Of a stretch of DNA of 64,000 nt, positions 18,479 to 62,892 are shown piece after piece. How positions within the stretch are numbered: position 1 is the stretch's first letter; every line of letters starts with the position of its first letter. The translations under genes and the position numbers were made by a program. The DNA is from Escherichia coli (GTDB lineage: Bacteria; Pseudomonadota; Gammaproteobacteria; Enterobacterales; Enterobacteriaceae): NCBI RefSeq assembly GCF_030013205.1, contig NZ_CP122648.1; one strand, 5' to 3'. Below the pieces are notes generated by a model, which had not been told where the DNA came from, searched no databases, and worked only from the letters and a program-made list of their open reading frames with translations.

Positions 18479-18763
18479 ATGCCCTGGCGTTTTCAGAGAA
18501 CAACTTATCACGGCTGGTGGAAAAATCAGTGGCAACTCTGGGTTCAGGGAAAAAATCGTAAAATGGTATGTGCATTAACGGGCGGAAATATCAGCAAAGC
18601 TGAAATGCTCTCTTTAGCAACCAGCAGACATTTTATCGACTGGCTACATAAACAAGCAGTATTTACTCACAGCACCCCGCTTTCCGCAGGGCGCGTTACG
18701 CAAATACTGCTTTCTCTAGCTCAGGATTACAACAACTGCGCCAGGCGGTTAATATCCGACTGA
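18479..18763 (+). CDS. hypothetical protein; possibly the displaced 3' part of the upstream gene
   Basis: 94-aa ORF in the -1 frame relative to 17634..18350; its frame is open from 18329, overlapping the upstream ORF end; overlaps metL 3' end by 37 bp. Confidence 0.3.
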   Translation: MPWRFQRTTYHGWWKNQWQLWVQGKNRKMVCALTGGNISKAEMLSLATSRHFIDWLHKQAVFTHSTPLSAGRVTQILLSLAQDYNNCARRLISD

Positions 18764-44479: not shown

Positions 44480-44526
44480 GATAAAAAAAACCCCCACATC
44501 ATGTGGGGGAAGACAGGGATGGTGTC
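44480..44526. repeat. prophage att site, fieF-side copy of 47-bp direct repeat
   Basis: GATAAAAAAAACCCCCACATCATGTGGGGGAAGACAGGGATGGTGTC, identical copy at 62846..62892; flanking bases diverge immediately outside. Confidence 0.85.
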
Positions 44527-44637: not shown

Positions 44638-44856
44638 TCACATCCACATAATTTGCTGCCCTGACGGCAACGGGTGCGGCCTCACGGCGTGGACTTCTCC
44701 CGGCTTCACGATGTATCGCTGTACCGACTCATAAGTGATGAACGTGGCGCTGCAATTCACGTTCTGACACTGGTGATAACGCTCTTTTGTCGTGTCAGTG
44801 ATATAGCGACTTGTACGCGCATGTGCGGCATGCTGGCATAAAGGACAATGAAACAT
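44638..44856 (-). CDS. ogr: late gene transcriptional activator Ogr (C4 zinc finger)
   Basis: ORF trimmed to MFHCPLCQHAAHARTSRYITDTTKERYHQCQNVNCSATFITYE… (72 aa). Confidence 0.9.
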   Translation of the reverse strand: MFHCPLCQHAAHARTSRYITDTTKERYHQCQNVNCSATFITYESVQRYIVKPGEVHAVRPHPLPSGQQIMWM

Positions 44857-44937: not shown

Positions 44938-46101
44938 TCACTCATCATCTTCTGTTTCGTTCTCCACATCAGAAAGCCTGACCTCAAGCTCTAAGGACGT
45001 CGTGAAGCCGCTATTATTCAGAAAATGTGTCACCTTAGTGATTGTCCAGTCCTGCTCGTCTATGACGCGCTTAAAGCCTGATACTTTGACCGGCGTTTCC
45101 GTGTAAATATCTGCCCGACCGGTAGCCAGACTGATGGAAAACTCCGCAACGCCCCGTTGCAGCTTATCCCACTTCGCCTGAGCGGCGCGCATGGCCTGCG
45201 CTTTCGTGGCATATACCGTGGTCAGGGCAAAAACGTTGTCAGCTTCACCGGCCATGTATTCACCTTCGCGCGCTTCCGGTACTTTTGGCGCTTTCTTCTG
45301 CGTGACTGGTTTCGCTTTCGGGTGCTCCAGTGCGCGCAGGTGTTTTTCTTTCTTTTTGCGTTTCAGTTTTACCTTCTGCTTTTGCGGCTTCGGGTCTTTG
45401 GTGTGAAGCCACTTTGCCGTTACGCCGGTATAGGCTCCACGGTCAGCAATCGCAAAATGGTGGCGGTCGCCGTCGCTGCGGGTTATGGTGACCTGCGGGA
45501 TTTTTTTACCGCTGGCCGTCACCCCCTGCCCCGCTTTGAGAAACAACAGTTTTCCCATTTTTACCGAGACCTCACCGCCGTTGCGTTCTGCAAGACGGGT
45601 CAGGAATTTCGCATCAGACTCCTGCGACTGGTCGATGTGCGGAATTTTAATTCCGGCCAGTGACGGAGCGACACTGGCTTCCAGCCTGTTACGGGAGGCT
45701 ATCGCCTCAACAATCGCACCGAGCGTGGTGTCATGCCATGAGCCTTCCCGGCGGGAATTGAGCGTCCCGCGAAAATCTGCACTCCGGGCGCGGATGGTGA
45801 CCACATCCGGTGCGCCCCGGTGTTCAACCTCATCAACGGTAAATTTCCCTTTGCATACCAGGGCAAAACCTTTCCAGCCGATATACACCGTCAGGACAGC
45901 GCCACGAACCGGCAGCCCGACCTGCCCGTCGGCATCGTTCAGTTCAATATCAAGCTGGTCAGCCTCAAAGCCCCGGTTATCCGTCAGGGTCATGCTCATC
46001 AGACGGTCGCTGATATTGCCGGTAATATCCCTGCTGTCGAGCATCAGCATGTAATCCGGCGTCAGCGTACTGCCTGCATCAAATGTCAGCGTATCCAGCA
46101 T
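44938..46101 (-). CDS. D: tail protein D
   Basis: 387-aa ORF in the P2 D position (between U and ogr). Confidence 0.8.
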   Translation of the reverse strand: MLDTLTFDAGSTLTPDYMLMLDSRDITGNISDRLMSMTLTDNRGFEADQLDIELNDADGQVGLPVRGAVLTVYIGWKGFALVCKGKFTVDEVEHRGAPDVVTIRARSADFRGTLNSRREGSWHDTTLGAIVEAIASRNRLEASVAPSLAGIKIPHIDQSQESDAKFLTRLAERNGGEVSVKMGKLLFLKAGQGVTASGKKIPQVTITRSDGDRHHFAIADRGAYTGVTAKWLHTKDPKPQKQKVKLKRKKKEKHLRALEHPKAKPVTQKKAPKVPEAREGEYMAGEADNVFALTTVYATKAQAMRAAQAKWDKLQRGVAEFSISLATGRADIYTETPVKVSGFKRVIDEQDWTITKVTHFLNNSGFTTSLELEVRLSDVENETEDDE

Positions 46102-46580
46102 TATCCCGCCCCCGTCATACCCGTGAATCTGGTCGCCATATTGCCGGCCTTACCGATGAGCGACTCCGCCTGTTTACCGATATCGCCATAAAGCGCGGCC
46201 AGTGATTCATCAACGCGGGTGAGCGACAGCGTAAAATCAATTTTTCGGGGTGTGCCATCTGCAAAGAAAATACTCCCTGTTTCACTCACCTTGCTGATGA
46301 CATACATGCCGTAAATCATTCCGGTGCCATCCAGCAACGGCCACGCCCGGCCTTCCTCTGCCATCAGTCTGAGCGTGGTCATCGTCAGCTTGCCGCCGGT
46401 CAGTTCGGGATAAAGCACACCGGCAAGCGTCATGTTTTCCTCGCCAACACCGAGAAACTGGTAGGCATCCCGTTTACCGATACGGGAATTTGACGGCCAG
46501 CGATAATCAGATTCACGCTGCATGGTCTGGTGTGGCAGCGTCTGGCGCATAAAAACAAACATACCTAACGCGAGCATCAT
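46101..46580 (-). CDS. U: tail protein U
   Basis: 159-aa ORF; start overlaps D stop (ATGA-type coupling). Confidence 0.8.
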   Translation of the reverse strand: MMLALGMFVFMRQTLPHQTMQRESDYRWPSNSRIGKRDAYQFLGVGEENMTLAGVLYPELTGGKLTMTTLRLMAEEGRAWPLLDGTGMIYGMYVISKVSETGSIFFADGTPRKIDFTLSLTRVDESLAALYGDIGKQAESLIGKAGNMATRFTGMTGAG

Positions 46581-46594
46581 TTTTCGTCACCTCC

Positions 46595-48142
46595 TTAACC
46601 GTCATGCATCATGCTGGCACGGGCGCGCGCACGTTTATCCCGCTCGTATTTTTCGAGCGCATCCTGTAACTGGCGGTCAAGCTGTGTCCCCGGCGCAGTA
46701 CCACCCGTCAGGCTGATGTGATATTCGTTTTTACTCTGGTCTACATAAGAGCGGCCAGCCGGTGCCGTGACCGGCTGATAAGCCTGATAGCCTGCATAAG
46801 AGCTGGTCGCCGGAATATAACCACCGGTGCCATACGTGGCGGCATGAGTTCTGGCGGCGGTCTGGTCAAGTGTGTCTGACTCTTTGTTGATAACACCGAG
46901 TTTTTCCAGTACCCAGTCAATACCGCTGCGCAGTTTGTTGAACGCATTAAGCGGCAGCATCAACGCGTCAGCCAGTGCCTGCCCGAACATGACGCCCGAA
47001 TCACGGCAACGGTTCAGGGTGTCCTGGGTGGCTTTGACCGGGGCAATCAGGTTTTTAAACCACTGCCACGCGGCCTGTAACTTTTCACCCAGCCAGTCAA
47101 ACAGCGGCTTAAGTGGCGTGAACAGTTCCCCCACCGGCGCAAATGCTGCTTTCAGCCCTTCAACCACACCGCCAAAGAATGCGCTGACAGGCTCCCAGTA
47201 TTTACGGATAAGCAACGCCCCGGCGACAATGGCGGCCACCACGGCCACAACCGGCCAGCTAATCGCCCCGATGGCCGTCATAACAGCACTGCCAACCGTC
47301 GTGAAGATTGCCCCCATTGCGCCTGCTGCCGCAATGATGGCATTGATGCCGGTGATAACCGGCCAGGCTACAAGACCAATTGCACCGATGATGCCAGTAA
47401 GCGCCAGTGCGCCACCGGCAATGATGCCGATAGTTGCCGCCAGTGATTTGTTTTTCTGTATCCAGCCGTCGAGTTTTAACACATACTTTGTGGCCGTCTG
47501 CGTGAGCTTACGCAGTGCGCCTTCCTGCTGGTCAAACAGGTCAGTCCCCACCGCTTCATAAGCGGACTGAAACTCCTTAAAGTCACCGCCGAGGTTGTCC
47601 TGCATGATTTTAACCAGCTCTTCCGTTTTACCGTCTGAGGCTTTCAGCGTGGCGGTCAGCTTATCCAGTTTTCCGCTTGCAGCCGCTGCCAGTAAAACGT
47701 TCGCTGATTTCAGGGCTTCCTCACCAAAAATGGTTTTAAGGTATTCCCCCTTCTGAGACGTTCCCAGCTTGTGTTTATCAAAGCTGACCTGAATCTCTTT
47801 CAGAATGGTGAACAACGGACGCATATTTCCCTTTTTGTCCGAGGTTTTAACGCCAAGCTCTTTGAGTGCTTCCCATGCTTTCCCTGTCGGAGCCTGTAAT
47901 CGGGTGACAACGGCACTACTCCCCGTACCCAGCATGGAGCCGATGCCGCACACCGCAGGCAGTGACAGGTCAGGAAACTGCACCAGAACAACACCGGCAA
48001 CCATCGAGACAAAACCACCGAGCAACATGCGCCCGATAAACAGACGCGGGGTGATGGGTTCACCACCGGCAAGCACCTTGCCGACAACAATCAGCACCCC
48101 AATCATGAAAAGCGACAGGACGCTTTTTTCTTCTGCTGTCAT
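46595..48142 (-). CDS. in-frame fusion: N-terminal holin (Y)-like membrane segment joined to C-terminal tape-measure (T) fragment
   Basis: 515-aa ORF starts 4 bp inside the X stop (Y position) with hydrophobic holin-like helices (SVLSLFMIGVLIVVGKVLAGG…) and ends just before U (T position) with Ala/Gly-rich tape-measure-like sequence; far too short for an intact T. Confidence 0.65.
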   Translation of the reverse strand: MTAEEKSVLSLFMIGVLIVVGKVLAGGEPITPRLFIGRMLLGGFVSMVAGVVLVQFPDLSLPAVCGIGSMLGTGSSAVVTRLQAPTGKAWEALKELGVKTSDKKGNMRPLFTILKEIQVSFDKHKLGTSQKGEYLKTIFGEEALKSANVLLAAAASGKLDKLTATLKASDGKTEELVKIMQDNLGGDFKEFQSAYEAVGTDLFDQQEGALRKLTQTATKYVLKLDGWIQKNKSLAATIGIIAGGALALTGIIGAIGLVAWPVITGINAIIAAAGAMGAIFTTVGSAVMTAIGAISWPVVAVVAAIVAGALLIRKYWEPVSAFFGGVVEGLKAAFAPVGELFTPLKPLFDWLGEKLQAAWQWFKNLIAPVKATQDTLNRCRDSGVMFGQALADALMLPLNAFNKLRSGIDWVLEKLGVINKESDTLDQTAARTHAATYGTGGYIPATSSYAGYQAYQPVTAPAGRSYVDQSKNEYHISLTGGTAPGTQLDRQLQDALEKYERDKRARARASMMHDG

Positions 48143-48145
48143 GCG

Positions 48146-48349
48146 TTACTCCCACAGATTGACAGTTTCAGCCACGGGCGCGGTCTGAACGTCGGGCAGT
48201 TCGACGGCGGTGCCGTGCGGCAGCACCGCGCCCAGTTCAGCCAGTCCCGGATTTGCGGCGAGCACGGCTTCGACCACGCCCTCAGTGCGCCCGTAATACC
48301 GGACACAGATGGCGTCGAGCGTGTCGCCCTGTAGCGCAAAGGTCTTCAT
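48146..48349 (-). CDS. X: tail protein X
   Basis: ORF trimmed to MKTFALQGDTLDAICVRYYGRTEGVVEAVLAANPGLAELGAVLPHGTAVELPDVQ… (67 aa). Confidence 0.85.
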   Translation of the reverse strand: MKTFALQGDTLDAICVRYYGRTEGVVEAVLAANPGLAELGAVLPHGTAVELPDVQTAPVAETVNLWE

Positions 48350-48858
48350 CAGATTTGACTCACGATGCAGCGCGGCTTGTCCTGGATGCGCGCCACCGCC
48401 CAGCGCATATCCCGCCACAGCTCATCAATGGTGCTGTCAATGCTGTCGGCCTTCTTGTCGCCTTTCGCACTGGCATCCACGCCGCGGTAACGCTCATAAA
48501 GCGACGCGGTCGCCATCGCACACACAGCGCGCTCGTAGTAAAAAACTTTGATGCTTTCACCGTCGATGTCGTCCGCCGGAACGTCCGCCAGACGCGTAAA
48601 ACCGGCGGCAATTTTCTGTTCGCGGTACTCGTACAGCTCCGCATTCGTTTCCGCCATGCCTGACTTGATGGCCTCACGCAGGCGGGCGGGGGCGACGGTC
48701 TGCTCAAGGCGCATACGTTCCCGGACACGCTTCGGGTCGATATCGGGAAAAAAGAACGTGTTTTTAATCACCGGCTCGTCGCCTGCCGGTTGCGGGATGA
48801 CCACCGTACCCTCACCGGACACGGGAGCCTCCTTTCGCGGAATAATCAGCGTCATCAT
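48349..48858 (-). CDS. L: capsid completion protein L
   Basis: ORF trimmed to MMTLIIPRKEAP (169 aa). Confidence 0.8.
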   Translation of the reverse strand: MMTLIIPRKEAPVSGEGTVVIPQPAGDEPVIKNTFFFPDIDPKRVRERMRLEQTVAPARLREAIKSGMAETNAELYEYREQKIAAGFTRLADVPADDIDGESIKVFYYERAVCAMATASLYERYRGVDASAKGDKKADSIDSTIDELWRDMRWAVARIQDKPRCIVSQI

Positions 48859-48957: not shown

Positions 48958-49701
48958 TTAACTGGCTTTCTTTTTCGGGCGTCCACGTTTTGCCGGTGTC
49001 ACGCTCCGGGTCTTACGCGGGGTACGGGTGGCCGCTTTGGGCTGCGGCTCCGGCTTCGGTTTCAGCTCCCGCTCCAGTCGTTCAATCTCTTTTTTGACGC
49101 CTGCCTGACAGTCGAGCTGTGTCGCACGTTGCAGGTGAGCCAGCGCCCCTGCGGCATCACCAGCGTCACGCAGAAACAGACCGGTGATTTTGTGCAGTTT
49201 TGCGCGCACTTCATCAGGCATGTCAGCCGTGGCGGTCAGTTCGAGGGTGTCCATCAGCAGGCGGGGATCCACAGACTCACCGGCAGCGTGAGCGCGCATG
49301 GCCGCAAGCGCCACCTCCTCGGTGAACATGTACGGCGGGGTGCGGCGGTGTTTACCCGGCATGGTCAGACCGTACTTCAGGGCATAACGGGCAATCTCCA
49401 GCGCACCGGCAATATCGCCGGTATCCAGACGCCACAGCATGACCGTCATCAGAATGTCATCCTGTGCACCTTTGCCCTGCTCCAGCACGCCGTTCACCCA
49501 CGGCAACCAGAACGGCAGCAGTTCGCGTTTTTTCGCGGCCTTCAGCTCTTTTGAATAAATCGCTTTCAGTGTGCGCTGGTCTGCGGCGAGCTTAACCAGC
49601 ATCTGCTCATAGACAGTTGCATGTCGCAGCGGGGCGGCTTCCCGCTGCGCGGTCATCGCTGCCGAGACCCGCATCATGTGGCGCTGTGCGGGACTCGTCA
49701 T
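48958..49701 (-). CDS. M: terminase endonuclease (small) subunit M
   Basis: 247-aa ORF in the M position between L and N. Confidence 0.8.
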   Translation of the reverse strand: MTSPAQRHMMRVSAAMTAQREAAPLRHATVYEQMLVKLAADQRTLKAIYSKELKAAKKRELLPFWLPWVNGVLEQGKGAQDDILMTVMLWRLDTGDIAGALEIARYALKYGLTMPGKHRRTPPYMFTEEVALAAMRAHAAGESVDPRLLMDTLELTATADMPDEVRAKLHKITGLFLRDAGDAAGALAHLQRATQLDCQAGVKKEIERLERELKPKPEPQPKAATRTPRKTRSVTPAKRGRPKKKAS

Positions 49702-49704: not shown

Positions 49705-50778
49705 TTACGCTCCCGGCTCTGCGGTCGCCCTGGCCGGTGTGGAGAAATCACCGACCTTAATTTTTTCCACCAGGCAACCGGCGGCGTAGTCTTCCACCAC
49801 GTAATCAATGTTCATTGACTCGTAGTTCTCCACGCGGTCGAGTTTCGGGTTTTCCTCAATCACGCGGCGATGGCTGTCATCCATGTAGTAGATGGACAGG
49901 TTTTCCAGCTTCGTGATGAGCATCGCATCCGCCGGGAAGTACGGGACGCGTACCGCCGGCAGGTTACCGATGCGTTTCTGGCTGATGATGACGTCAGCGG
50001 CCAGCATTTCGCTGTTGTCCTGCTCTTTGTTAACGATGGGGAAATACTTGTCCGCCAGTAGCTGACGCCCCACAATCACCACAAGGTCAGGGTCTTCCTG
50101 ATACCACGGCTCAATCAGGTTGTTGGTCGCATCCATCACCAGTGCATCAAGGCTGGCATAATCACCGCCCTTACCCACGCGGATAACCTCAGAGGTGGTG
50201 CGGCCTTCCTCGTCAGTGACCTTGCTCATCACACGCGCCGGGGCTTCATTGCGGTATTTCTGCAGCCAGCCAACCGCCACATCCTGCAGCATCGGATTGC
50301 TGCTGCGGTCAGAGGTTTCGGCACGCTTCACGCCGTTAAAACCGGCCATGATGAAATCAAGGGACTGGCGTTTGATAATGGCGTTACGGATACGGAGCTG
50401 GAAATCCTGATAACGCGCCCACAGGTCAAGCGTTTTGTAGCGGATATAAAAATCGAAGTTAATCTGGTCGCATTCGTACTTGTTAGACGCCAGCTTCGAG
50501 AAGTCCTTCGGCTGACGCTCGGTGCCACCGGCGGTGTCGGTGGTGCTGGCGATGGAGCCGGTGACACCGATACCAATTTTTTCCCCTTTCATTTCGCTGA
50601 CCGGCACAATGTTGATGCGGGTCAGAAAATCAGAGGACTCCTGCATGGTGTTCATCAGGGTCTGGGTGACCGACGGTTCAACGGTGAATTTTTTCGACAC
50701 ATCACCGGCGTCGATGCCGTTCAGTTCGGCAACACGGGACAGGTAGGCATTAAATTTAAAGCGGGTTTCCTGGCGCAT
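49705..50778 (-). CDS. N: major capsid protein N
   Basis: 357-aa ORF. Confidence 0.85.
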   Translation of the reverse strand: MRQETRFKFNAYLSRVAELNGIDAGDVSKKFTVEPSVTQTLMNTMQESSDFLTRINIVPVSEMKGEKIGIGVTGSIASTTDTAGGTERQPKDFSKLASNKYECDQINFDFYIRYKTLDLWARYQDFQLRIRNAIIKRQSLDFIMAGFNGVKRAETSDRSSNPMLQDVAVGWLQKYRNEAPARVMSKVTDEEGRTTSEVIRVGKGGDYASLDALVMDATNNLIEPWYQEDPDLVVIVGRQLLADKYFPIVNKEQDNSEMLAADVIISQKRIGNLPAVRVPYFPADAMLITKLENLSIYYMDDSHRRVIEENPKLDRVENYESMNIDYVVEDYAAGCLVEKIKVGDFSTPARATAEPGA

Positions 50779-50836
50779 AGTTTTTCCTGAAATTAAGGGT
50801 TAATCGTGAAGGTTTTTCCGGACTGACTGACGCCGG

Positions 50837-51691
50837 TCAGCAGTTCGTCATCAGGGCGTCACCGCCACCGCCGGTGGCCTTGCTGCGGCGCTGCTGGGTC
50901 AGACTTTCGGTGTGGTCGAGACTGTTTTTCAGGCGGGTGAATGCCTGGCTGGTTTCATCCGCCCTGTCAGTCACCTCCTGCTTAAGTGCGGAAAAGGCGG
51001 TTTCCATCTCAGCGAGGCGCTGCTCAGTGGCGCTCAGCTTTTCCTGCACATGTTCAGCAACAGCGGTCACCGCTTCATGCACATCATTCAGACGGGCGTC
51101 ATCGCTGGCCTGTTTGCGGCCAAAAATGGATTTCACCTTTTCGGTCAGGGCGGTGAACACGGTTTCAGGCAGGTCTTCAAATTCCAGCTCAACAGGCGTT
51201 GCCACTGAAATCAGGTTTTCAGGGCTTAATTTGAAGCGGTTCAGGGGGTTGTGTTTTGCCGTGCGGCAGAATTCCAGGTATTCCGTGCCGAGGCTTGCCG
51301 GGTCATCGGTGACGGCCAGACCCACCAGATAACATTTGCCGGTATTGGCAAAGTTCGGCTGAATTTCCATTGAGGTATAGACCTTCTGCGCGGCCTTGTT
51401 CATCGCGATAAGGTCATCGGTCGGGGTGATTTTCGCAAACAGCGCCCATTTGCCTTTCAGCGCCGAATCGTCATCAATCTTTTCGGCCTTCAGTTCAACC
51501 ACATCGCCATAACGTTTAAAAATACCGTCAGGCAGGATGCCGCGCAGATGTTCCAGGTTAATGCGGCAACCATAGACGCGCGGGTCAAAGGTTTCAGCCA
51601 TTTCCTGAATATCCTGCGCACTGATGACACGCCCGTCACAGGTGTCACCCTCAACGCCGATACGAAAGAATTTTGAGACTTTTTTTGCCAT
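50837..51691 (-). CDS. O: capsid scaffolding protein O
   Basis: ORF trimmed to MAKKVSKFFRIGVEGDTCDGR (284 aa). Confidence 0.8.
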   Translation of the reverse strand: MAKKVSKFFRIGVEGDTCDGRVISAQDIQEMAETFDPRVYGCRINLEHLRGILPDGIFKRYGDVVELKAEKIDDDSALKGKWALFAKITPTDDLIAMNKAAQKVYTSMEIQPNFANTGKCYLVGLAVTDDPASLGTEYLEFCRTAKHNPLNRFKLSPENLISVATPVELEFEDLPETVFTALTEKVKSIFGRKQASDDARLNDVHEAVTAVAEHVQEKLSATEQRLAEMETAFSALKQEVTDRADETSQAFTRLKNSLDHTESLTQQRRSKATGGGGDALMTNC

Positions 51692-51864
51692 TGTCAGGAG
51701 TCCTGAATAGTGATTAGAGGAGTCACATGTCGGCATCAGTTTCCCGACGATGCGCATCCTCCGCCATCAGTCCCGGATGGCTTATCACTGACACAACAGC
51801 ACCTTAGCGAATCGCGGGGCGCGACTCAGTAGGCTTGCCGTGTATTCATCACGGCGAGGTATTC
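51692..51864. promoter_or_regulatory. divergent phage late promoter region (O-operon and P-Q operon; Ogr-dependent)
   Basis: intergenic region between divergent O and P; call is by position in the P2 map, no operator motif confidently identified. Confidence 0.4.
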
Positions 51865-53637
51865 ATGACCATCACCACAGACACCACTCTTTTACACGAC
51901 CCGCGTCGTCAGGCGGCGCTGCTGTACTGGCAGGGGTTTTCCGTGCCGCAGATTGCCGCCATGTTGCAGATGAAACGCCCGACGGTGCAGAGCTGGAAAC
52001 AGCGCGACGGCTGGGACAGCGTTGCCCCCATCAGCCGTGTCGAAATGAGTCTGGAAGCGCGGCTGACCCAGCTCATCATCAAACCGCAGAAAACCGGCGG
52101 TGACTTCAAGGAAATTGACCTGCTCGGACGCCAGATTGAACGGCTGGCACGGGTCAACCGTTACAGTCAGACCGGCAACGAGGCAGACCTTAATCCGAAC
52201 GTCGCTAACCGCAACAAAGGCGGGCGTCGCAAACCGAAAAAGAATTTTTTCAGCGACGAAGCCATCGAAAAGCTGGAGCAGATTTTCTTTGAGCAGTCTT
52301 TCGACTATCAGTTGCACTGGTATCGCGCCGGGCTTGAGCACCGCATCCGCGATATCCTGAAATCCCGCCAGATTGGCGCGACGTTTTATTTTTCCCGCGA
52401 GGCGCTGCTGCGTGCCCTGAAAACCGGTCATAACCAAATTTTTCTGTCGGCCAGTAAAACGCAGGCGTATGTGTTCCGCGAATACATCATCGCCTTTGCC
52501 CGTCTGGTTGACGTTGACCTGACCGGTGACCCGATTGTCCTGGGCAATAACGGCGCAAAACTGATTTTTCTCGGCACCAACTCCAACACCGCGCAGAGCC
52601 ATAACGGCGACCTGTACGTCGACGAGATTTTCTGGATCCCGAATTTTCAGGTACTGCGTAAGGTGGCATCAGGTATGGCCTCACAGAGCCACCTGCGCTC
52701 GACCTATTTCTCCACCCCGTCCACGCTGGCGCACGACGCCTACCCATTCTGGTCGGGTGAACTGTTCAACCGGGGACGCGCCAGCGCCGCTGAACGCGTG
52801 GAAATCGACGTCAGTCATAACGCCCTTGCCGGGGGGCTTCTCTGTGCGGACGGCCAGTGGCGGCAGATTGTCACCATTGAGGACGCCCTGAAAGGTGGCT
52901 GCACGCTGTTCGACATTGAGCAGCTCAAACGTGAAAACAGCGCCGACGATTTTAAAAACCTGTTCATGTGTGAATTTGTTGACGACAAGGCGTCGGTGTT
53001 CCCGTTCGAGGAGCTGCAACGCTGCATGGTCGACACGCTGGAAGAATGGGAAGACTATGCGCCGTTTGCCGCCAATCCGTTCGGCTCCCGCCCGGTATGG
53101 ATTGGTTACGACCCGTCACACCGTGGCGACAGCGCCGGATGCGTGGTGCTGGCACCGCCGGTGGTGGCCGGAGGTAAATTCAGAATACTTGAGCGTCACC
53201 AGTGGAAAGGCATGGACTTTGCCACTCAGGCGGAATCCATCCGCAAACTCACCGAAAAATACAACGTCGAATACATCGGAATTGATGCCACCGGCCTCGG
53301 TGTCGGCGTGTTCCAGCTCGTGCGCTCGTTCTATCCCGCCGCGCGCGATATCCGCTACACGCCGGAAATGAAAACCGCAATGGTGCTCAAGGCAAAAGAC
53401 GTCATCCGCCGTGGCTGTCTGGAATATGACGTCAGCGCCACCGACATCACCAGCTCGTTCATGGCTATCCGCAAGACCATGACCAGCAGCGGACGCAGCG
53501 CCACCTATGAGGCCAGCCGTAGCGAGGAAGCCAGCCACGCCGACCTCGCCTGGGCGACCATGCACGCCCTGTTAAATGAGCCACTCACCGCCGGTATCAG
53601 CACCCCGCTGACATCCACCATTCTGGAGTTTTACTGA
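51865..53637 (+). CDS. P: terminase ATPase (large) subunit P
   Basis: ORF trimmed to MTITTDTTLLHDPRRQAALLYWQGFSV (590 aa). Confidence 0.9.
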   Translation: MTITTDTTLLHDPRRQAALLYWQGFSVPQIAAMLQMKRPTVQSWKQRDGWDSVAPISRVEMSLEARLTQLIIKPQKTGGDFKEIDLLGRQIERLARVNRYSQTGNEADLNPNVANRNKGGRRKPKKNFFSDEAIEKLEQIFFEQSFDYQLHWYRAGLEHRIRDILKSRQIGATFYFSREALLRALKTGHNQIFLSASKTQAYVFREYIIAFARLVDVDLTGDPIVLGNNGAKLIFLGTNSNTAQSHNGDLYVDEIFWIPNFQVLRKVASGMASQSHLRSTYFSTPSTLAHDAYPFWSGELFNRGRASAAERVEIDVSHNALAGGLLCADGQWRQIVTIEDALKGGCTLFDIEQLKRENSADDFKNLFMCEFVDDKASVFPFEELQRCMVDTLEEWEDYAPFAANPFGSRPVWIGYDPSHRGDSAGCVVLAPPVVAGGKFRILERHQWKGMDFATQAESIRKLTEKYNVEYIGIDATGLGVGVFQLVRSFYPAARDIRYTPEMKTAMVLKAKDVIRRGCLEYDVSATDITSSFMAIRKTMTSSGRSATYEASRSEEASHADLAWATMHALLNEPLTAGISTPLTSTILEFY

Positions 53638-54671
53638 TGAGCAAGAAAAAAGGGAAAACACCGCAACCTGCGGCAAAAAAAATGACCGCCAGCGCCCCGA
53701 AAATGGAGGCATTCACCTTTGGTGAGCCGGTGCCGGTACTCGACCGCCGTGACATTCTGGATTACGTCGAGTGCATCAGTAACGGCAGATGGTATGAGCC
53801 ACCAGTCAGCTTTACCGGTCTGGCAAAAAGCCTGCGTGCTGCCGTGCATCACAGCTCACCGATTTACGTCAAACGCAATATTCTGGCCTCGACATTTATC
53901 CCACATCCGTGGCTTTCCCAGCAGGATTTCAGCCGCTTTGTGCTGGATTTTCTGGTGTTCGGTAATGCGTTTCTGGAAAAGCGTTACAGCACCACCGGCA
54001 AGGTCATCAGACTGGAAACCTCACCGGCAAAATATACCCGCCGTGGTGTGGAAGAGGATGTTTACTGGTGGGTGCCGTCCTTCAACGAGCCGACAGCCTT
54101 CGCGCCCGGTTCCGTGTTTCACCTGCTGGAGCCGGATATTAATCAGGAGCTGTACGGCCTGCCGGAATATCTCAGCGCCCTTAACTCTGCCTGGCTGAAT
54201 GAGTCAGCCACGCTGTTCCGCCGCAAGTATTACGAAAACGGCGCTCATGCCGGATACATCATGTACGTCACCGATGCCGTGCAGGATCGCAACGATATCG
54301 AAATGCTTCGCGAAAACATGGTTAAGTCGAAAGGCCGCAACAACTTTAAAAACCTGTTTCTCTATGCCCCGCAGGGGAAAGCTGACGGCATTAAAATTAT
54401 CCCGCTCAGTGAAGTGGCGACGAAGGACGATTTTTTTAATATCAAAAAAGCCAGTGCCGCAGACCTGCTGGACGCGCACCGCATCCCCTTTCAGTTGATG
54501 GGCGGCAAGCCGGAGAACGTCGGGTCGCTGGGTGATATTGAGAAAGTGGCAAAGGTCTTTGTCCGCAATGAGCTTATCCCGTTACAGGACAGGATTCGGG
54601 AAATAAACGGCTGGCTCGGTCAGGAGGTCATCCGCTTTAAAAACTACTCACTGGACACTGACAACGGCTGA
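53637..54671 (+). CDS. Q: portal protein Q
   Basis: 344-aa ORF; start overlaps P stop. Confidence 0.9.
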   Translation: MSKKKGKTPQPAAKKMTASAPKMEAFTFGEPVPVLDRRDILDYVECISNGRWYEPPVSFTGLAKSLRAAVHHSSPIYVKRNILASTFIPHPWLSQQDFSRFVLDFLVFGNAFLEKRYSTTGKVIRLETSPAKYTRRGVEEDVYWWVPSFNEPTAFAPGSVFHLLEPDINQELYGLPEYLSALNSAWLNESATLFRRKYYENGAHAGYIMYVTDAVQDRNDIEMLRENMVKSKGRNNFKNLFLYAPQGKADGIKIIPLSEVATKDDFFNIKKASAADLLDAHRIPFQLMGGKPENVGSLGDIEKVAKVFVRNELIPLQDRIREINGWLGQEVIRFKNYSLDTDNG

Positions 54672-54840: not shown

Positions 54841-54859
54841 GTGCTTTCCCCGCCTCGCC
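54841..54859. other. cos site (19-nt cohesive-end sequence)
   Basis: GTGCTTTCCCCGCCTCGCC is the reverse complement of GGCGAGGCGGGGAAAGCAC, the P2/186 cohesive end as I recall it; lies between Q and the cargo, as in the P2 map. Confidence 0.55.
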
Positions 54860-54987: not shown

Positions 54988-55407
54988 CTAATCATCTTCT
55001 AAAGGTGGAATTTTGATGCCACTAATTAGCAGTACTTTCCGGTATGCCTCAAAAATAATGTTGTGTGTTTTTTGTAAATCATCGAGCATTTTTTGCCGTC
55101 CTGCTGGGGTATCTTTGGCAAAATTATGAGCGCGAAAAAAATCATGTGCCAAGTAGTTTCTGGCTTTAAGAGCATCTGACACATACTCCAGTGTATCAGC
55201 ATCCTCCACCATCCTAGACTTCAGTGCGTAATTCAATTTACCCAGCGTGTATTTATCCATTTCTAAAAACTGTTTTTTCAGCGACTGTATATCTTTCCCC
55301 TGACTCATATCATACTCAGTGATAACATTTATCAACTCAGTCTCCAGTAATTGAGCTGCTTCCGAAGCATAACCAAATTTCCAATAAACCGTATCAAGCG
55401 TCACCAT
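54988..55407 (-). CDS. hypothetical cargo protein with R-x4-H (HEPN-like) motif
   Basis: 139-aa ORF in AT-rich DNA, codirectional with and downstream of the HNH gene; contains ARNYLAHDFF. Confidence 0.6.
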   Translation of the reverse strand: MVTLDTVYWKFGYASEAAQLLETELINVITEYDMSQGKDIQSLKKQFLEMDKYTLGKLNYALKSRMVEDADTLEYVSDALKARNYLAHDFFRAHNFAKDTPAGRQKMLDDLQKTHNIIFEAYRKVLLISGIKIPPLEDD

Positions 55408-55498
55408 ATAATCTATTCCCCATATAACAAATCACACCCAAAATTAAATCATAACACATAATTAAATCTAACGCCTCTCTGCACCAGAAGAAGTCATG

Positions 55499-56830
55499 TT
55501 AACGCTTATCATGGAACTTTTTCCATTTTGTCATCAACTTTCCAGCATCAAGTTCTACATGATGCGGTTGTAGAGTTTTACCCTCAAACATAGTTTTGTG
55601 GATACAATTAATAGAGAAATGAACCGTTAAGTCCTCTGGATTAATCCCCATTAATCCTTTATCAAACATTCGGTGTAAACTTACTTCAAGTAACAGGCCA
55701 TTAGATGTGTTATTATTTGCTGATTCTGTTATTGCTTCAATATGTGCGGCTTCCAATATCCCCTCTGGCAATGGATAGCCAGTAATAGCACATCTGCCAT
55801 TGAAGTTATCCCAAACACGGCGTTTGAAATCAGCTTGATCTCCAGCATGACGGACTTTGTGAGTAACCTCGACTGTTCGTCCTGTAGCACAGGTATCGTT
55901 TGCGGCCTTGAAAGGATTAATTAGACTTTCATTAATGGCTATATCCGTTCCATCCATGATAAGAGATATTTCATTATTGGGTTCGGGTGATGTTAATGGA
56001 CTTATGTACTGATTGCTTAAAAAAGTCATACTAGATTCTTCATCAGTCGCGAGTTTCCACGCTTCTGATTGTGTCATTGTTAGCAATGCCGTTTGATAAA
56101 CTTGCTTATTAAAATAACGTTTATCTTTCTTGTAACTCCCCATATTAATAGTACTAGATTTAATCGGAAGTGTTTTATCACCAATTAGTAGATCACGTAT
56201 TTCTACAGTCTCTTCTAAGGTATCAATAGGAGCTACTATAGGGTTAGTAAACGGGTTATCTACATGATCTACGTGGTTGTGTCGTAAATGCCACTCTATA
56301 GCACTATCTTTTATATGTATCTCGCAGACAGGGCATACAATAAGCCCCATAGATGTTACAGGTAGCTTTTTGCCACCGATTAAGCGTAATGTATTTGCAT
56401 TCTGGTTATGTACTTTCTTTTGGTTCTGTGTCAGTACACTACGCTTAGCCTCTAAACGGGTCGGAATCTTAGCAAGATTAAGCGATTTACGGCTCTCTTG
56501 TCTCTCAAGATCATAGATCCGAATCCCTGCTTCAGTTTTGATTTTTGTCCACATAGAGATAGAACTAAGGAATTTATGTCCATGTACTTTTTCATAATCA
56601 GCATAAGCTTGCAAAGTAGCAGTGGAACTATCTAATCCTTTTTTACGGAGTGCTGTATATTGCTGAAAAAGATTAATAGCATGAGCTGTAATAGAGCGCC
56701 TATTCTCTATAATTTGCGCTTTTTTTGCTGCTTGTTCTGCTTGCAATGCTTTTTGTTCAGGGGTAAGCGACTTCTTTTTGGCTTTCTTGGTTCTTTTCTT
56801 ACTCAAAGTTTTCTTACTGTTATTGTTCAT
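55499..56830 (-). CDS. HNH nuclease-domain cargo protein (Lys-rich N-terminus, C2H2-like zinc finger, C-terminal HNH)
   Basis: 443-aa ORF; N-terminus SKKTLSKKRTKKAKKK; CPVCEIHIKDSAIEWHLRHNH; C-terminus GRCAITGYPLPEGILEAAHIEAI…SNGLLLEVSLHRMFDKGLMGI resembles the HNH endonuclease core; AT-rich. Confidence 0.7.
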   Translation of the reverse strand: MNNNSKKTLSKKRTKKAKKKSLTPEQKALQAEQAAKKAQIIENRRSITAHAINLFQQYTALRKKGLDSSTATLQAYADYEKVHGHKFLSSISMWTKIKTEAGIRIYDLERQESRKSLNLAKIPTRLEAKRSVLTQNQKKVHNQNANTLRLIGGKKLPVTSMGLIVCPVCEIHIKDSAIEWHLRHNHVDHVDNPFTNPIVAPIDTLEETVEIRDLLIGDKTLPIKSSTINMGSYKKDKRYFNKQVYQTALLTMTQSEAWKLATDEESSMTFLSNQYISPLTSPEPNNEISLIMDGTDIAINESLINPFKAANDTCATGRTVEVTHKVRHAGDQADFKRRVWDNFNGRCAITGYPLPEGILEAAHIEAITESANNNTSNGLLLEVSLHRMFDKGLMGINPEDLTVHFSINCIHKTMFEGKTLQPHHVELDAGKLMTKWKKFHDKR

Positions 56831-56939: not shown

Positions 56940-59258
56940 TCAATGGTCCATTGTGAATCCCGGCCACTCATCAGCGACCGGATACGTGAATTTTTTACCG
57001 TCGTAATTTACAGTCGCGCCACGCGCCAGCGCCTCAAGCTCCCATCTCTGAGGCCTGATACCGTTCTGAGCAAGGTCTACGCGGATACGGGTAATTTGCA
57101 TTCGTTCTGACCGGGTCAGTCTGGCCGATGGTGCAATTTCATGCGGTTTTAACGGGCTTCCGTTTCTTTGCTGACGGTTTGGCGTTCTCAGGTCGTATTT
57201 TAATGCGCCCCTGAGCGCCCTCACGACCTCCGGTTCATTCCATTCAATAACACCGTCATCAACCAGATTAAGCACTGCTGCGGCGTGCTCAGAAGGAGTG
57301 GGAGCCGGTAACGAAGTATCACCGCTGGTGAGCTTTCCACAGTTATTGACAGGACTCCGAGGCGCGGCGATGCCGCTTTTTAAAGTCAAAGGCTCAACGA
57401 CCGGAACTTTCGGCACAATGCGCCAGTCCGTCGTTCTGGTGATATGAATATGACGCGCGCCGAGATGCGGCGCGTAAATGCCGACCACTCTCTCGACTTC
57501 TTCCTCGTATTCGTTAACGTCATCCGACGGGCTACGGGCGACCCTGACAGTCTGACAATCGCGCGGGACATTTGCCCCGCCCTGCGCGCTGATATACAGC
57601 GCAAAATCGCCACTGTCTGCGGCGGCGCGTGCAGCCTCCACGCGTTCGTCAAATTCATCAGCAATGCTGACGCCGCGAGGCAATTTACGTAGCTCACGGT
57701 AAGCTCCCATTGTCGGCAGGCCAACCGTTTTAAATTGCGGGATGCGCCACGTTGATGCCCATGCGGTAACAGCCGCCGCAGTATCTTTCAGCGGTCTGCC
57801 GGTATCGTTATCGAGCTGACCATCCAGTGCATAGCCGTCGATATTTTTTGAAATGTATTTCGCGATATATCCCGCAGCACCGCCCCGGTTAAGGTGTTTT
57901 GCCTGAAAACGGTTTCGCGCGGCTCCTCTTTCGTCGCCATCCTCTTTGAGCGCATAGCGACGCATGATTTCGATAATCTGGTTACGCTGGCGTGGATTAC
58001 AAAAAAGCATCATATGCCAGTGCGGCGTTCCGTCGTGGTGTGGCTCGACGACTCGCAAACCGTAGACCTGTAAATCATTATCCTTGAATGCCGTGCGCAT
58101 CAGGCTCCAGATACGGCAGAGATAACGCTGCGCATCCTTTGGATTAAATGCCTCATCATTCCAGCCGTGATTAAGCTGGACGGTTTTATTTTCGCCTTTT
58201 CCGACCTGACGTGTCGGGTGATACTTTGACGGCGCGGTAAGCGTGATAAACATCCCCACATCACCCTCTGAGGCGGCGTAACGCTCAATACCGGCAATGG
58301 TGTTCATCAGCTCCATCCGGCGAATTTCAGGATTAGAAATACTGCCCATCACCTTACTGATAAGGTCGATGCGCTCGCCGGTTTCCCTGTTTTCAAGGTC
58401 ACACGATTTAAGAAATTCCAGATTTGCCTGGCGGCGCGCACGCACATCACGAATGGCGTGTTTACTGGCATAAGGAGAACGGTCTTTATTGACCTCCCCG
58501 ACAGCTATCAGTAACGCTTCATGCCAGCGCATACGCTGGCCTTTAAGCTGATGAGTCCACCACTCATCGTTAAACAGACGGGCAATTGCAGAATATGCCT
58601 GCCTCGTGGTCATCTGTCCTTTACGGTATTTTTTCCAGTAGAGAGGGGAAATATTGAAAGCACGTGCAGCACCAGCAACATGACCATAGAGGTGAGCCTG
58701 CGCCTCATCCGTAAACAGCGATTCTTTTTCGCCATGCGCATCCACCCAGGCATCGCTGAGTTCCTCATACATCATGAAAAGCTGCGATGAGATACGGGCA
58801 GCAAACTTTTTCAGCTCCTTGTCATTCATTCCCGGCAGGCGCGCATAGTGGTCACGCTCTGCCAGAAACAGTAACGACGCGTCGGTGTTCATTTCATGGC
58901 GCTGATTCACACGCTCAATGCGCGGCCATAAACGACGCTGAAAAGTGGATGTGAGGAAATAAAACCCGTGCACCGGGCTTTTATTGCGCCGGATGTAGTC
59001 ATAGCGTGAAGTAAACAGCGAGCGCAAAAAGTAAGGCAGGCGGTTAATCGTGGATAAAACACCTTGCACCTGACGCATCTCGTCACGTGTAAGGGGTCTT
59101 TCGCGCCCGACAGCCTCGCGTGGCGCGTTCCATGCATAAGCACCTGTAAACGCCTTACCGGTGCCTGCGGCAAATGCTGACGGAGGGACAAAACGTCCGG
59201 AGGCTTTAACGGCCATGTGAGCCAAAAGCCTCTGAACAACGCTTGCTGAGTTGCTCAA
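56940..59258 (-). CDS. A: replication initiation endonuclease A (rolling-circle Rep)
   Basis: 772-aa ORF in the P2 A position; true start may be a few codons downstream. Confidence 0.85.
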   Translation of the reverse strand: MSNSASVVQRLLAHMAVKASGRFVPPSAFAAGTGKAFTGAYAWNAPREAVGRERPLTRDEMRQVQGVLSTINRLPYFLRSLFTSRYDYIRRNKSPVHGFYFLTSTFQRRLWPRIERVNQRHEMNTDASLLFLAERDHYARLPGMNDKELKKFAARISSQLFMMYEELSDAWVDAHGEKESLFTDEAQAHLYGHVAGAARAFNISPLYWKKYRKGQMTTRQAYSAIARLFNDEWWTHQLKGQRMRWHEALLIAVGEVNKDRSPYASKHAIRDVRARRQANLEFLKSCDLENRETGERIDLISKVMGSISNPEIRRMELMNTIAGIERYAASEGDVGMFITLTAPSKYHPTRQVGKGENKTVQLNHGWNDEAFNPKDAQRYLCRIWSLMRTAFKDNDLQVYGLRVVEPHHDGTPHWHMMLFCNPRQRNQIIEIMRRYALKEDGDERGAARNRFQAKHLNRGGAAGYIAKYISKNIDGYALDGQLDNDTGRPLKDTAAAVTAWASTWRIPQFKTVGLPTMGAYRELRKLPRGVSIADEFDERVEAARAAADSGDFALYISAQGGANVPRDCQTVRVARSPSDDVNEYEEEVERVVGIYAPHLGARHIHITRTTDWRIVPKVPVVEPLTLKSGIAAPRSPVNNCGKLTSGDTSLPAPTPSEHAAAVLNLVDDGVIEWNEPEVVRALRGALKYDLRTPNRQQRNGSPLKPHEIAPSARLTRSERMQITRIRVDLAQNGIRPQRWELEALARGATVNYDGKKFTYPVADEWPGFTMDH

Positions 59259-59481
59259 CCTGCACGTTTAAATCAGCAAAAGACTTTGCGCTTCCGGTCA
59301 GAATATCGTGATGCATCAGGCCTGAAACGAGCTGGCTTAATTTCGGGTAATAACCAACCACCGCCAGCCATTCCTGACCGGCGTTTTTACCGCTTTCAGC
59401 TCTCTTTTTCTCGTGGAGAATAAACTGAAAGCTGTCACTGGTAACGACATAACGTTCGCCAATTTCAATACGAATACTCAT
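59206..59481 (-). CDS. hypothetical early-region protein (P2 orf83-like position)
   Basis: 91-aa ORF, tightly packed codirectional array between B and A. Confidence 0.45.
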   Translation of the reverse strand: MSIRIEIGERYVVTSDSFQFILHEKKRAESGKNAGQEWLAVVGYYPKLSQLVSGLMHHDILTGSAKSFADLNVQVEQLSKRCSEAFGSHGR

Positions 59482-59702
59482 GCCGTTCTCCGGTAATGTT
59501 TGTTTTTTGCTTCAAAGACTGACTGACAGGAAACACAACGCGTGGCTGACGGGTAAGCCGCACGACGGGCAGCAGGTATTGGCGCGTCACACTCTTCGCA
59601 AACCAGCGCAGAAGCACCGCAATGTTTTACCCTTGCCGCGTTAATCTGGCGCTCCAGTAATTCAGCCTGTTGTTCCTGAATAAAATCTACGTTGTCCGGC
59701 AT
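59478..59702 (-). CDS. TraR/DksA-type C4 zinc-finger protein (P2 orf82-like)
   Basis: 74-aa ORF with CEEC…CVSC zinc finger (CGASALVCEECDAPIPAARRAAYPSATRCVSCQ). Confidence 0.6.
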   Translation of the reverse strand: MPDNVDFIQEQQAELLERQINAARVKHCGASALVCEECDAPIPAARRAAYPSATRCVSCQSVFEAKNKHYRRTA

Positions 59703-60007
59703 TACCAGTTCCTTTTGTCGTTCAGTTTTTTAAATTCATCAGCGCAATAGCTGGCGATTTCTGTCGTTAATTTCGTCAGTTCATCCACGGAGGAAATTTG
59801 CTTGTGAAATACAGCGCGTTTAACAAGTAAATTGACCACATCAGACAGGAGGTTTAATTCACTCTGATAAATCGCGATAACAGATTCAGTTATTTCGCGT
59901 TTTTCTTTATCAAGACCAAGTTGAATAAGAGACAAATCGCCATTTTTCATAACGGCGATTTTTAAGGCATTGTTCAGTAAAACAACTGAACGAGAACAGG
60001 ACATCAA
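59702..60007 (-). CDS. hypothetical early-region protein
   Basis: 101-aa ORF; start/stop overlaps with neighbours. Confidence 0.45.
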
Positions 60008-60261
60008 AGCACCTCCCCGCGAGACAATCCGATGTTGTGAAATTTTTCCGACTCCTGACTGAGCAGCTCGACTATCTCCACGCGGGATAACTCCGCCTTT
60101 GTGATGTGGCGAATCATGGCGTCAAGATGAGAAGAAAAGCGCGTCGCTGCATCGGCCTGTGCTTCGGTTCTGGCCTGTTGCAGCAGTAATGCGTATTTAC
60201 CGCACTGATTTTCAGAAACTGTATGCATGACTTTCTCCAGGCAAAAAGAAGCCCCGCACAA
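60004..60261 (-). CDS. hypothetical early-region protein
   Basis: 85-aa ORF; translational coupling to the next ORF. Confidence 0.45.
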
Positions 60262-60291
60262 TTAAGTGCGTTAAAAACTCTGGTTAATTAC

Positions 60292-60798
60292 TTAATGCAG
60301 ATATTGCTCTGGTTTTACCGACGTCAGAATTGTCGGTGCATACTCAAACAGGCTGAATAATTCACGTAATGCACGGAATAAAGCATCACGCCAGTAACAT
60401 GACTCTTCATTAATTCGCCAGTATGGCTGGTTGAATTCTTTTTCAGTCAATCCGGCATGCATAAATAAAGTGCGACGCTGACTGACTGTTAAAAAACTAA
60501 TATATGCATACTCACTTGCGCCAACCTGACGGCGTTTTGAGAATGCCCCACGCAATTCATCAATTGCACAAACCAGCCGTTCACGTTCGACGTCGTTCAT
60601 TTCTTCAAAACGCATCGTTGCGTGACGCTGTTTTAACTGCGCATGAAAGCAAACCGTTAGCCGTTCGCGCTCCATCATCTGATTATAATAATCACATGTA
60701 TCCTGCCAGCGAGGAACGGCAAGATGCTTACCAATTATCCGGCGCATAGCTGCTGGCTGTTTTTCAACGAGATTGAGCGTCATCACTGTCATTTCCAT
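60292..60798 (-). CDS. B: replication protein B (helicase loader-like)
   Basis: 168-aa ORF in the P2 B position downstream of cox. Confidence 0.7.
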   Translation of the reverse strand: MEMTVMTLNLVEKQPAAMRRIIGKHLAVPRWQDTCDYYNQMMERERLTVCFHAQLKQRHATMRFEEMNDVERERLVCAIDELRGAFSKRRQVGASEYAYISFLTVSQRRTLFMHAGLTEKEFNQPYWRINEESCYWRDALFRALRELFSLFEYAPTILTSVKPEQYLH

Positions 60799-60961
60799 AC
60801 CCTCCGGCTTTTCAGAAAGGTCAGAGCCTTTTTTAACGGACTCTGTTTTTTGGTGCGGATAATGATTCCCTTACGCCCCTTACCGTGGGTGATGGTGAAG
60901 TCAATCGCCCTTGGGCTTTCGTTACGCAGTAACTGAGCAATACAACGCGGTTCACTCATAA

Positions 60962-61234
60962 TCACAACCCCATCCACAAAAGCCATGCATCACGCTGTTC
61001 AACTGGTCGGTTATAAAACGCCTCTCGTACAGCGCGATTAAACTCTGGAATGAAAACCCACTTCTCACCGACACGAGCGTTCGGCTTACTTGGATCACGA
61101 AGCTCAATAACTGGCAATTTATTCTCTTTTACCATCTTGACTACAGCCGTTTCTGGCTTACCAAGTAACTCTGCAAACTTAACCGTATGTACCGCATCAA
61201 TCGGGTACTGAATCACATAGTCATTGACTTCCAT
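60962..61234 (-). CDS. cox: Cox excisionase / early-operon regulator
   Basis: 90-aa ORF ending …WLLWMGL, divergent from the C repressor. Confidence 0.7.
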   Translation of the reverse strand: MEVNDYVIQYPIDAVHTVKFAELLGKPETAVVKMVKENKLPVIELRDPSKPNARVGEKWVFIPEFNRAVREAFYNRPVEQRDAWLLWMGL

Positions 61235-61386: not shown

Positions 61387-61680
61387 ATGCAGACATTCGA
61401 AAAACTGAAAGCGATTAGGAAAGCAGAAGGCTTAACACAGGCGAAATTCAGCGAAATTAGCGGGATAGCTCTAGGAACAGTCAAAAATTACGAAAGTGGG
61501 CATAAAGACCCTGGTCTCAGCATCGTTATGCGAGTCACAAATACGCCTTTATTTAAAAAATATACGCTCTGGTTAATGACTGGTGATACGTCACCACAAG
61601 CTGGTCAGATCGCGCCGGCTCTCGCACACATTGGGCAAAAACCAACAGAATCAGACCACTCCGAAAAACAGACTGGTTAA
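61387..61680 (+). CDS. C: immunity repressor C
   Basis: 97-aa ORF with HTH (EGLTQAKFSEISGIALGTVKNYESG) and …KYTLWLMTGD…GQIAPALAHIGQ resembling P2 C. Confidence 0.8.
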   Translation: MQTFEKLKAIRKAEGLTQAKFSEISGIALGTVKNYESGHKDPGLSIVMRVTNTPLFKKYTLWLMTGDTSPQAGQIAPALAHIGQKPTESDHSEKQTG

Positions 61681-61719
61681 CACTCTATAAACATTATATT
61701 TTCACCATTTGTTACCAAG

Positions 61720-62730
61720 ATGGTGAATACAGCGTCAGAGGGCTTTCTTATGTCAATTAAGAAGCTCGATGATGGACGCTATGAAGTGGACATTAGACCT
61801 CGCGGTCGCGACGGAAAACGCATCCGCAGGAAATTTGAAAGAAAAGCTGAGGCTGTAGCATTTGAGCGATACACAATCGCCTACGCCAGCCAGAAAGAAT
61901 GGGCAGGTCAGCGAGCAGATCGCAGAACTTTGAGTGAGTTGCTGGACATCTGGTGGAAATATCACGGGCAAAACCACGAGCATGGAACAAAAGAGTTTAA
62001 TCATCTGCTCAAAACCATCAGCGGCATAGGTGATATACCAGTGAGCCGGATGAGCAAAAGAGCTTTGATGGATTATCGTTCCATGCGACTACGTGATGGT
62101 ATCAGTGCCGCAACGATAAACCGTGACATGTACCGATTATCCGGCATGTTCACAAAATTAATTCAATTGGATGAATTTTCCGGGCAACACCCAATTCACG
62201 GACTGCCGCCACTGGCGGAGGCCAACCCTGAAATGACGTTCCTGGAAAAAGCAGAAATCGAAAAACTGTTAAATGTTTTGGATGGTGATGACTTACTTGT
62301 CGCACTTTTATGTCTGAGCACTGGAGGAAGATGGACGGAAGTTGCCACGCTAAAACCAGCACAGATTACAAATTGCAGGGTTACCTTCCTGAAAACCAAA
62401 AACGGTAAAAAGCGAACCGTGCCGATTTCTGAGGAACTGGAGAAAAAAGTTAAAGAGGAGGCCAGCGCTAAATTATTCAAAGTTGATTATGAGAAGTTTT
62501 GCGGGATTTTACGCAGAGTGAAGCCAGATATACCACCCAATCAGGCAACCCACATCCTGCGGCATACATTCGCAAGCCATTTCATGATGAATGGGGGCAA
62601 TATAATCGCACTGCAACAGATTCTGGGACATGCGAGCATTCAGCAGACGATGGCCTATGCGCACCTTGCGCCTGACTACCTGCAAAATGCCGTCGCGCTG
62701 AATCCTCTAAAAGGCGGAGTGACGTTATAA
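61720..62730 (+). CDS. int: tyrosine integrase
   Basis: 336-aa ORF; C-terminal catalytic motifs (HILRHTFASHFMMNGG…LGHASIQQTMAYAHL); alternative start at 61750 (MSIKKLDDGRYE). Confidence 0.9.
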   Translation: MVNTASEGFLMSIKKLDDGRYEVDIRPRGRDGKRIRRKFERKAEAVAFERYTIAYASQKEWAGQRADRRTLSELLDIWWKYHGQNHEHGTKEFNHLLKTISGIGDIPVSRMSKRALMDYRSMRLRDGISAATINRDMYRLSGMFTKLIQLDEFSGQHPIHGLPPLAEANPEMTFLEKAEIEKLLNVLDGDDLLVALLCLSTGGRWTEVATLKPAQITNCRVTFLKTKNGKKRTVPISEELEKKVKEEASAKLFKVDYEKFCGILRRVKPDIPPNQATHILRHTFASHFMMNGGNIIALQQILGHASIQQTMAYAHLAPDYLQNAVALNPLKGGVTL

Positions 62731-62845: not shown

Positions 62846-62892
62846 GATAAAAAAAACCCCCACATCATGTGGGGGAAGACAGGGATGGTGTC
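62846..62892. repeat. prophage att site, cpxP-side copy of 47-bp direct repeat (also the cpxP terminator)
   Basis: identical to 44480..44526; on the minus strand reads as GC hairpin CCCCCACATGATGTGGGGG followed by TTTTTTTT, 24 bp after cpxP stop. Confidence 0.85.

Follow-up and report, generated by a model that had tools for sequence, protein, structure and literature searches.

The P2-like (Peduovirus) prophage integrated between fieF and cpxP in a porcine enterotoxigenic Escherichia coli (ETEC) chromosome carries, in place of its lysis genes and most of its tail genes, a single in-frame open reading frame (ORF) in which the beginning of holin gene Y runs directly into the latter part of tape-measure gene T. 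We consider it very probable that this chimera is the scar of one recent microhomology-mediated deletion, in frame by accident, and that the prophage has been decaying since. The DNA analysed, referred to throughout as the window, is a stretch of 64,000 nucleotides; positions 39500-64000 were 100% identical to the chromosome of ETEC4079 (NZ_CP122643.1), and five sister genomes obtained from Belgian pig faeces depart from this sequence by no more than one or two changes. The left 39 kb of the window is ordinary core chromosome running from yijO to tpiA, within which the metF-metL interval (~15948-18763) has a lower GC content (43-49%) and holds a bifunctional metallophosphatase/5'-nucleotidase gene and a frameshifted 'cytoplasmic protein' pseudogene. 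A literature search by strain names returned no match.

The prophage is bounded by two identical 47-bp direct att repeats and measures ~18.4 kb between them, roughly 55% of the 33.6 kb of P2 (AF063097). Its assignment to the P2 group follows the gene order, the late and replication genes being collinear with those of P2 and 97-100% identical to them, as well as the presence of cos and of the flanking att repeats (Table 1); the packaging proteins fall in the same identity range, and the late promoter is shared. Each att repeat holds a perfect hairpin, CCCCCACATCATGTGGGGG, preceded by a run of A residues, which looks like an intrinsic terminator, and integration has duplicated this terminator-like structure.

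Table 1. Features of the prophage and its deletion junction, in window coordinates
Feature	Position	Strand	Evidence or remark
att repeat, fieF side	44480-44526	.	Prophage end adjoining ogr; same 47-mer at 62846-62892
ogr, late-gene activator, intact	44638-44856	-	72/72 aa identical to P2 Ogr; PGAP name ogrK
Gene D, tail protein, intact but orphaned	44938-46101	-	387 aa, 98.7% to P2 gpD
Gene U, tail protein, intact but orphaned	46101-46580	-	159 aa, 97.5% to P2 gpU
T-derived part of fusion (gpT 373-815 + stop)	46595-47925	-	100% to PEC41 T 3' end, 91% to P2 T
Deletion junction, 5-bp microhomology GGGTA common to Y and T	47926-47930	-	Three-way alignment with PEC41; overlapping BLAST segments
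Y-derived part of fusion (holin codons 1-72)	47926-48142	-	99.1% nt to P2 Y 6716-6932; hydropathy scan
Gene X, tail protein X, intact but orphaned	48146-48349	-	67 aa, 98.5% to P2 gpX
Gene L, head completion	48349-48858	-	169 aa, 99.4%
Gene M, small terminase subunit	48958-49701	-	247 aa, 97.6%
Gene N, major capsid protein	49705-50778	-	357 aa, 99.7%
Gene O, scaffold	50837-51691	-	284 aa, 99.6%
Divergent late promoters P_P/P_O and Ogr binding site	51692-51864	.	172/173 nt = P2 2994-3166
Gene P, large terminase subunit	51865-53637	+	590/590 aa identical to P2 gpP
Gene Q, portal	53637-54671	+	344 aa, 99.4%
cos, 19-nt cohesive-end sequence	54841-54859	-	Exact match to P2 cosL GGCGAGGCGGGGAAAGCAC
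Hotspot cargo: 139-aa protein (54988-55407) and 443-aa HNH_2 protein (55499-56830)	54988-56830	-	Pfam, PHROG, PADLOC scans
Early operon A, orf83, orf82, orf81, orf80, B, orf78, cox	56940-61234	-	Full-length P2 matches
C-type repressor (61387-61680) and integrase (to 62730), non-P2 immunity/integration module	61387-62730	+	46% P2 C, 51% P2 Int
att repeat, cpxP side	62846-62892	.	Identical to 44480-44526

The fusion ORF occupies positions 46595-48142 on the minus strand and encodes 515 amino acids, a predicted product of 55 kDa. It begins where gene Y begins in P2, as a preliminary description of this DNA had noted, but not 4 bp inside the X stop codon as stated there: a 3-nt spacer separates it from the end of X at 48146, the same arrangement as in P2, where X ends at 6712 and Y starts at 6716. 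Over its first 217 nucleotides the ORF aligns to P2 Y (6716-6932) with 99.1% nucleotide identity, and over nucleotides 202-1548 to the 3' 1,347 nt of P2 T with 91% identity, rising to 97-100% for closer relatives. In the protein, residues 1-72 are identical to residues 1-72 of P2 Y (72/72) and residues 73-515 correspond to gpT residues 373-815. The PHROG profiles divide the product in the same way, with phrog_175 (holin) covering residues 1-82 (E = 1e-35) and phrog_28 (tape measure) residues 68-511 (E = 2e-99), and the precomputed Pfam matches on the protein are PF04550 and PF10145. The stop codon lies 14 nt from gene U, matching P2. BLAST, PHROG and Pfam therefore all bear out the earlier reading of a holin-like sequence that continues into tape-measure sequence and ends just upstream of U, and the ORF has two parents, Y and T, instead of aligning end to end with a single protein.

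The Y-derived part matches the holin family but does not comprise the full 93-aa protein: it breaks off after residue 72, partway through the third hydrophobic stretch (~59-83), a placement that, like the holin topology as a whole, is drawn from a hydropathy scan. The second half of that segment is missing from the fusion, as is the charged C-terminal tail of Y, RRFKGRGKQ. The T-derived part likewise matches its family but is not full length, having no counterpart to the N-terminal 45% of gpT, and it is not accompanied by tube, sheath and chaperone neighbours; among the 14 other members listed for the T cluster, 13 are 815 aa long, as is P2 T, and one is a 760-aa partial sequence. Because tube, sheath, baseplate and chaperones are missing, neither half would have an obvious working context, and to judge from gene content the chimera has likely lost both holin and tape-measure function.

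P2 proved a poor reference for placing the junction, since T is 91% identical to it and the apparent overlap extends over 16 nt, and the pig strain PEC41 (NZ_CM168023.1) was used instead. This strain carries a complete P2-like prophage at a different att site, adjoining trhP; the 3' end of its T gene is 100% identical to the window, and the sequences flanking the junction are 98.3-98.9% identical. When the two are aligned, the window follows PEC41 through Y as far as ...GGCTCCATGCTGGGTA and picks up again within T at GGGTACGGGGAGT..., with the switch at GGGTA. The junction thus falls at codon 72/73, inside the interval of residues 70-80 (near nt 47900) that had been predicted for it. The GGGTA motif sits in a 16-nt patch over which Y and T agree at 12 of 16 positions and both encode G-S-M-x-G, and the junction bears the hallmark of illegitimate recombination through microhomology. 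Between the two breakpoints 11,430 bp (3 x 3,810) are missing, and the reading frame is preserved across the join because this length is divisible by three and Y shares its frame with T. As such an outcome is expected by chance in one case out of three, it calls for no special explanation and is most simply an accident.

A tblastn search with all 42 P2 proteins against the 64-kb window found no K, lysA, lysB, lysC, R, S, V, W, J, I, H, G, FI, FII or E, and T as residues 368-815 only, in agreement with the claim that everything between Y and T is absent. These are the genes that the deletion removed, together with the first 372 codons of T and, by the features of P2, P_V, P_F and the terminator after S; compared with P2 and with intact relatives, the prophage has thus lost 11.4 kb reaching from the 3' end of Y into the 5' half of T. 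Because the att repeats enclose the whole prophage inside the window, the missing tail and lysis genes do not lie elsewhere in the prophage, and none were found either between the repeats or in the remainder of the window. A complete lysis cassette and a contractile-tail module, both needed for a functional phage, are absent from the prophage, and from its gene content it would be unable to make tails or lyse the host. In the six genomes, a 2.4-kb M-L-X-Y'T probe (itself a chimeric query) was located in a single place even with sensitive (distant) blastn, and the capsid gene is likewise single copy, so that no second close P2-like prophage is present in them. Adding 900 nt of the sheath gene FI to the junction probe raised the number of places per genome from one to two or three (distant blastn), and since it was the addition of FI that produced this rise, a distant sheath homologue belonging to another contractile-tail element is present elsewhere in NZ_CP122643.1 and its five sisters. 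Across E. coli, the capsid gene N was found in 1,764 places and FI in 2,009, counts that are not a clean gauge of head-only remnants.

The remaining P2 genes were recovered by tblastn at full length (Q, P, O, N, M, L, X, U, D, ogr, int, C, cox, orf78, B, orf80-83 and A), and with cos and the late promoter also intact, the capsid, replication, immunity and integration modules are as complete as the preliminary description had them. In comparison with P2, old, tin, orf91, orf30 and fun(Z) are absent, and the module comprising int, C and cox (61387-62730 and 60962-61234) is only 43-51% identical to its P2 counterparts, set against 97-100% for the late and replication genes. This is a mosaic module swap at int/C/cox, in keeping with integration between fieF and cpxP. 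When the prophage was scanned for LexA boxes, no LexA-box-like site was detected; P2-type immunity is not known to be SOS-inducible.

Taken together, the course of events that we favour would begin with one illegitimate-recombination deletion that joined Y to T at GGGTA in a P2-like prophage already resident at fieF/cpxP, and that would have taken with it the endolysin, spanins, lysis regulators, baseplate, fibre, sheath and tube genes and the tail chaperones as well as P_V and P_F. The 515-aa chimera would thereby have become readable from the Ogr-dependent P_O operon, now O-N-M-L-X-Y'T-U-D, and if Ogr is made, transcription of that operon would carry on through the chimera, U and D. The event is recent and lineage-specific, and the prophage is now decaying, with further head and packaging genes gone from sister isolates.

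The distribution of the junction was examined in 5,426 complete E. coli genomes with a 301-nt junction-spanning probe. The probe was covered in six genomes, all of them Belgian pig ETEC and identical or nearly so to one another over 24.5 kb; some 1,500 genomes of the same set matched only one half of it. The fieF-cpxP interval itself is a common P2 attachment site, with ogr adjoining fieF in 604 of the 5,426 genomes and a tail-containing relative (defined as at least 80% coverage of a 24.5-kb probe) at the site in 223; the prophage of E. coli W is one of the P2-like relatives at this site. The exact 515-aa protein was also recorded on 17 more contigs, belonging to draft or SRA-derived assemblies, and its surroundings were the same on each. 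Carriers of the junction outside the six complete genomes include GCA_028046925.1, SRR19716130 and SRR30668465. The fusion is therefore real and reproducible but confined to one narrow lineage. Its public annotation is inconsistent: the exact chimera stands in NCBI nr as a 'phage tail tape measure protein' (HAG5882361.1, HBH7749564.1, HCW2921412.1 and HDH8983641.1), whereas RefSeq PGAP renders the same DNA as two separate partial pseudogenes, a holin and a tape measure. The defective P2-like prophage of E. coli B had been suspected first, and was set aside when the junction was found in the six Belgian pig ETEC genomes only. E. coli TO73 (NZ_LS992171.1) had been considered as a second L-X-to-T deletion; its region at 2960780-2988706 is instead duplicated and ridden with frameshifts, with the order T-U-D'-M'-L-X-Y and two copies of ISEc12, and is probably the product of a noisy assembly or of IS-mediated rearrangement, unrelated to the Y-T deletion.

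Within the junction lineage, three further independent lesions were found, and all of them hit head or packaging genes. ETEC4069 has a 611-bp deletion inside terminase gene P (window 52744-53354); SRR19716130, an automated short-read assembly, has lost 2,645 bp (window 49708-52352) comprising the 5' end of P, the late promoter, O and N; and in ETEC1748 a homopolymer in portal gene Q (window 53651) is shorter by 1 nt, so that the gene is frameshifted and flagged as a pseudogene, although this change could be a sequencing error. This pattern points to continuing decay of the kind that neutral drift after the loss of viability predicts, and since head and packaging genes are expected to drift once the phage cannot reproduce, the lesions argue against selection for the capsid module. 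Genes for replication and immunity and those of the cargo showed no change in any copy examined, a state that would be compatible with selection as well as with recency, the two not being separable by these genes because there is so little divergence. That the other genes are still intact is accounted for by the recent date of the event.

The cargo of the prophage lies between A and Q/cos, a position corresponding to the P2 gpA-gpQ hotspot described by Rousset et al. (PMC9122126), a paper in which HNH proteins and defective prophages are not mentioned. The larger of the two cargo proteins has a C-terminal HNH_2 domain at residues 347-397 (Pfam), the smaller has no Pfam match, and both fall in PHROG families of unknown function. 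Scanning the pair with PADLOC v2 models recovered no described system, the matches being generic HNH ones (E = 3e-11) and a single marginal one (E = 0.002). An identical pair is carried by the intact P2-like prophage of PEC41 at its other att site, and the cargo is therefore not special to the defective copy. To call it defence cargo, as the preliminary description did, is a reasonable guess from the hotspot position, which makes the pair a candidate.

Three other explanations were weighed against the deletion-scar account; no observation ran counter to the deletion itself. The preliminary description held that the prophage looks domesticated, that is, that the host keeps the element for its cargo or for its capsid, replication or immunity functions, the loss of tail and lysis genes being an adaptive disarming. 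Such a reading could draw on the full-length state of every remaining gene in the window, on the preserved cos, att and late promoter, on the position of the cargo in a known P2 defence hotspot and on the constancy of the cargo, replication and immunity genes among the copies examined. Domestication would, however, be expected to show as conservation across diverged lineages under purifying selection, and what was found is an allele in a single narrow lineage (6 of 5,426 genomes and 17 contigs), which leaves little time for selection to show, accompanied by three extra lesions in head or packaging genes; moreover, the cargo has no match to a known defence system and is shared with an intact phage. 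We accordingly regard domestication, of which no sign was seen, as improbable, and the element as an ordinary P2-like prophage of a pig ETEC clone, recently inactivated and decaying.

A more unlikely explanation still is that the element acts as a tail-pirating, capsid-forming satellite, which would excise, replicate and package itself into its own heads while a co-infecting heteroimmune P2-like phage supplied tails and lysis. In its favour, P2 builds its heads and its tails separately, the late promoter has been kept, and the window holds intact int, cox, A, B, cos, P, M, Q, O, N and L; if this explanation were true, an 18.4-kb genome with HNH cargo would be packaged in P2-type heads after late-gene activation with borrowed tails and lysis, and a new satellite would have arisen from the very phage family that serves as its helper. 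Against it stand the loss of packaging genes within the lineage, a genome that from att to att is little more than half as long as that of P2, and the state of the six genomes, in which X, Y, T, L and M are single copy by distant blastn, so that no close second P2-like prophage is at hand and only the distant sheath homologue is present. The short shared sequence at the junction could also be taken to suggest an assembly artefact, a collapse or misjoin that conceals an intact prophage. This we consider scarcely credible, because the same junction recurs in six complete genomes that were deposited separately and on 17 contigs whose assemblies, from NCBI or derived from SRA data, are also separate, because a repeat of 5 bp could not have caused the collapse of 11.4 kb of unique sequence, and because Y and T are single copy in the six genomes.

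The deletion-scar account places the element beside known cases. E. coli K-12 harbours a P2 remnant, ogrK/yegZ, that is an example of a defective or cryptic prophage made by internal deletion. Like cryptic prophages in general, the present element is a temperate phage inactivated in situ by deletion, with ongoing gene loss and leftovers annotated as pseudogenes; unlike the K-12 remnant, it is much younger and less eroded, with ~18 kb left and a scar that is in frame. The capsid-forming phage-inducible chromosomal islands (cf-PICIs), which rely on a helper phage for tails, offer a second comparison, the resemblance being that head and packaging genes are present and tail genes are not. In contrast to the cf-PICIs, the prophage is a single recent deletion derivative and not a conserved family, its packaging genes are decaying, and no dedicated helper-exploitation genes of the cf-PICI kind were seen in it.

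What the analysis provides is a precisely mapped inactivation of a P2-like prophage, in which one 11.4-kb microhomology deletion would have come first and sister isolates would then have lost head genes bit by bit. For further work on this element, the HNH protein and its 139-aa neighbour, as a candidate anti-phage pair, are a more promising lead than the fusion. The fusion itself reveals that a 515-aa database entry with the look of an intact 'tape measure protein' is a deletion chimera, and the junction locus could serve to mark the lineage of the pig ETEC clone. As a new instance of a well-known kind, the deletion-inactivated prophage, it matters little beyond annotation.
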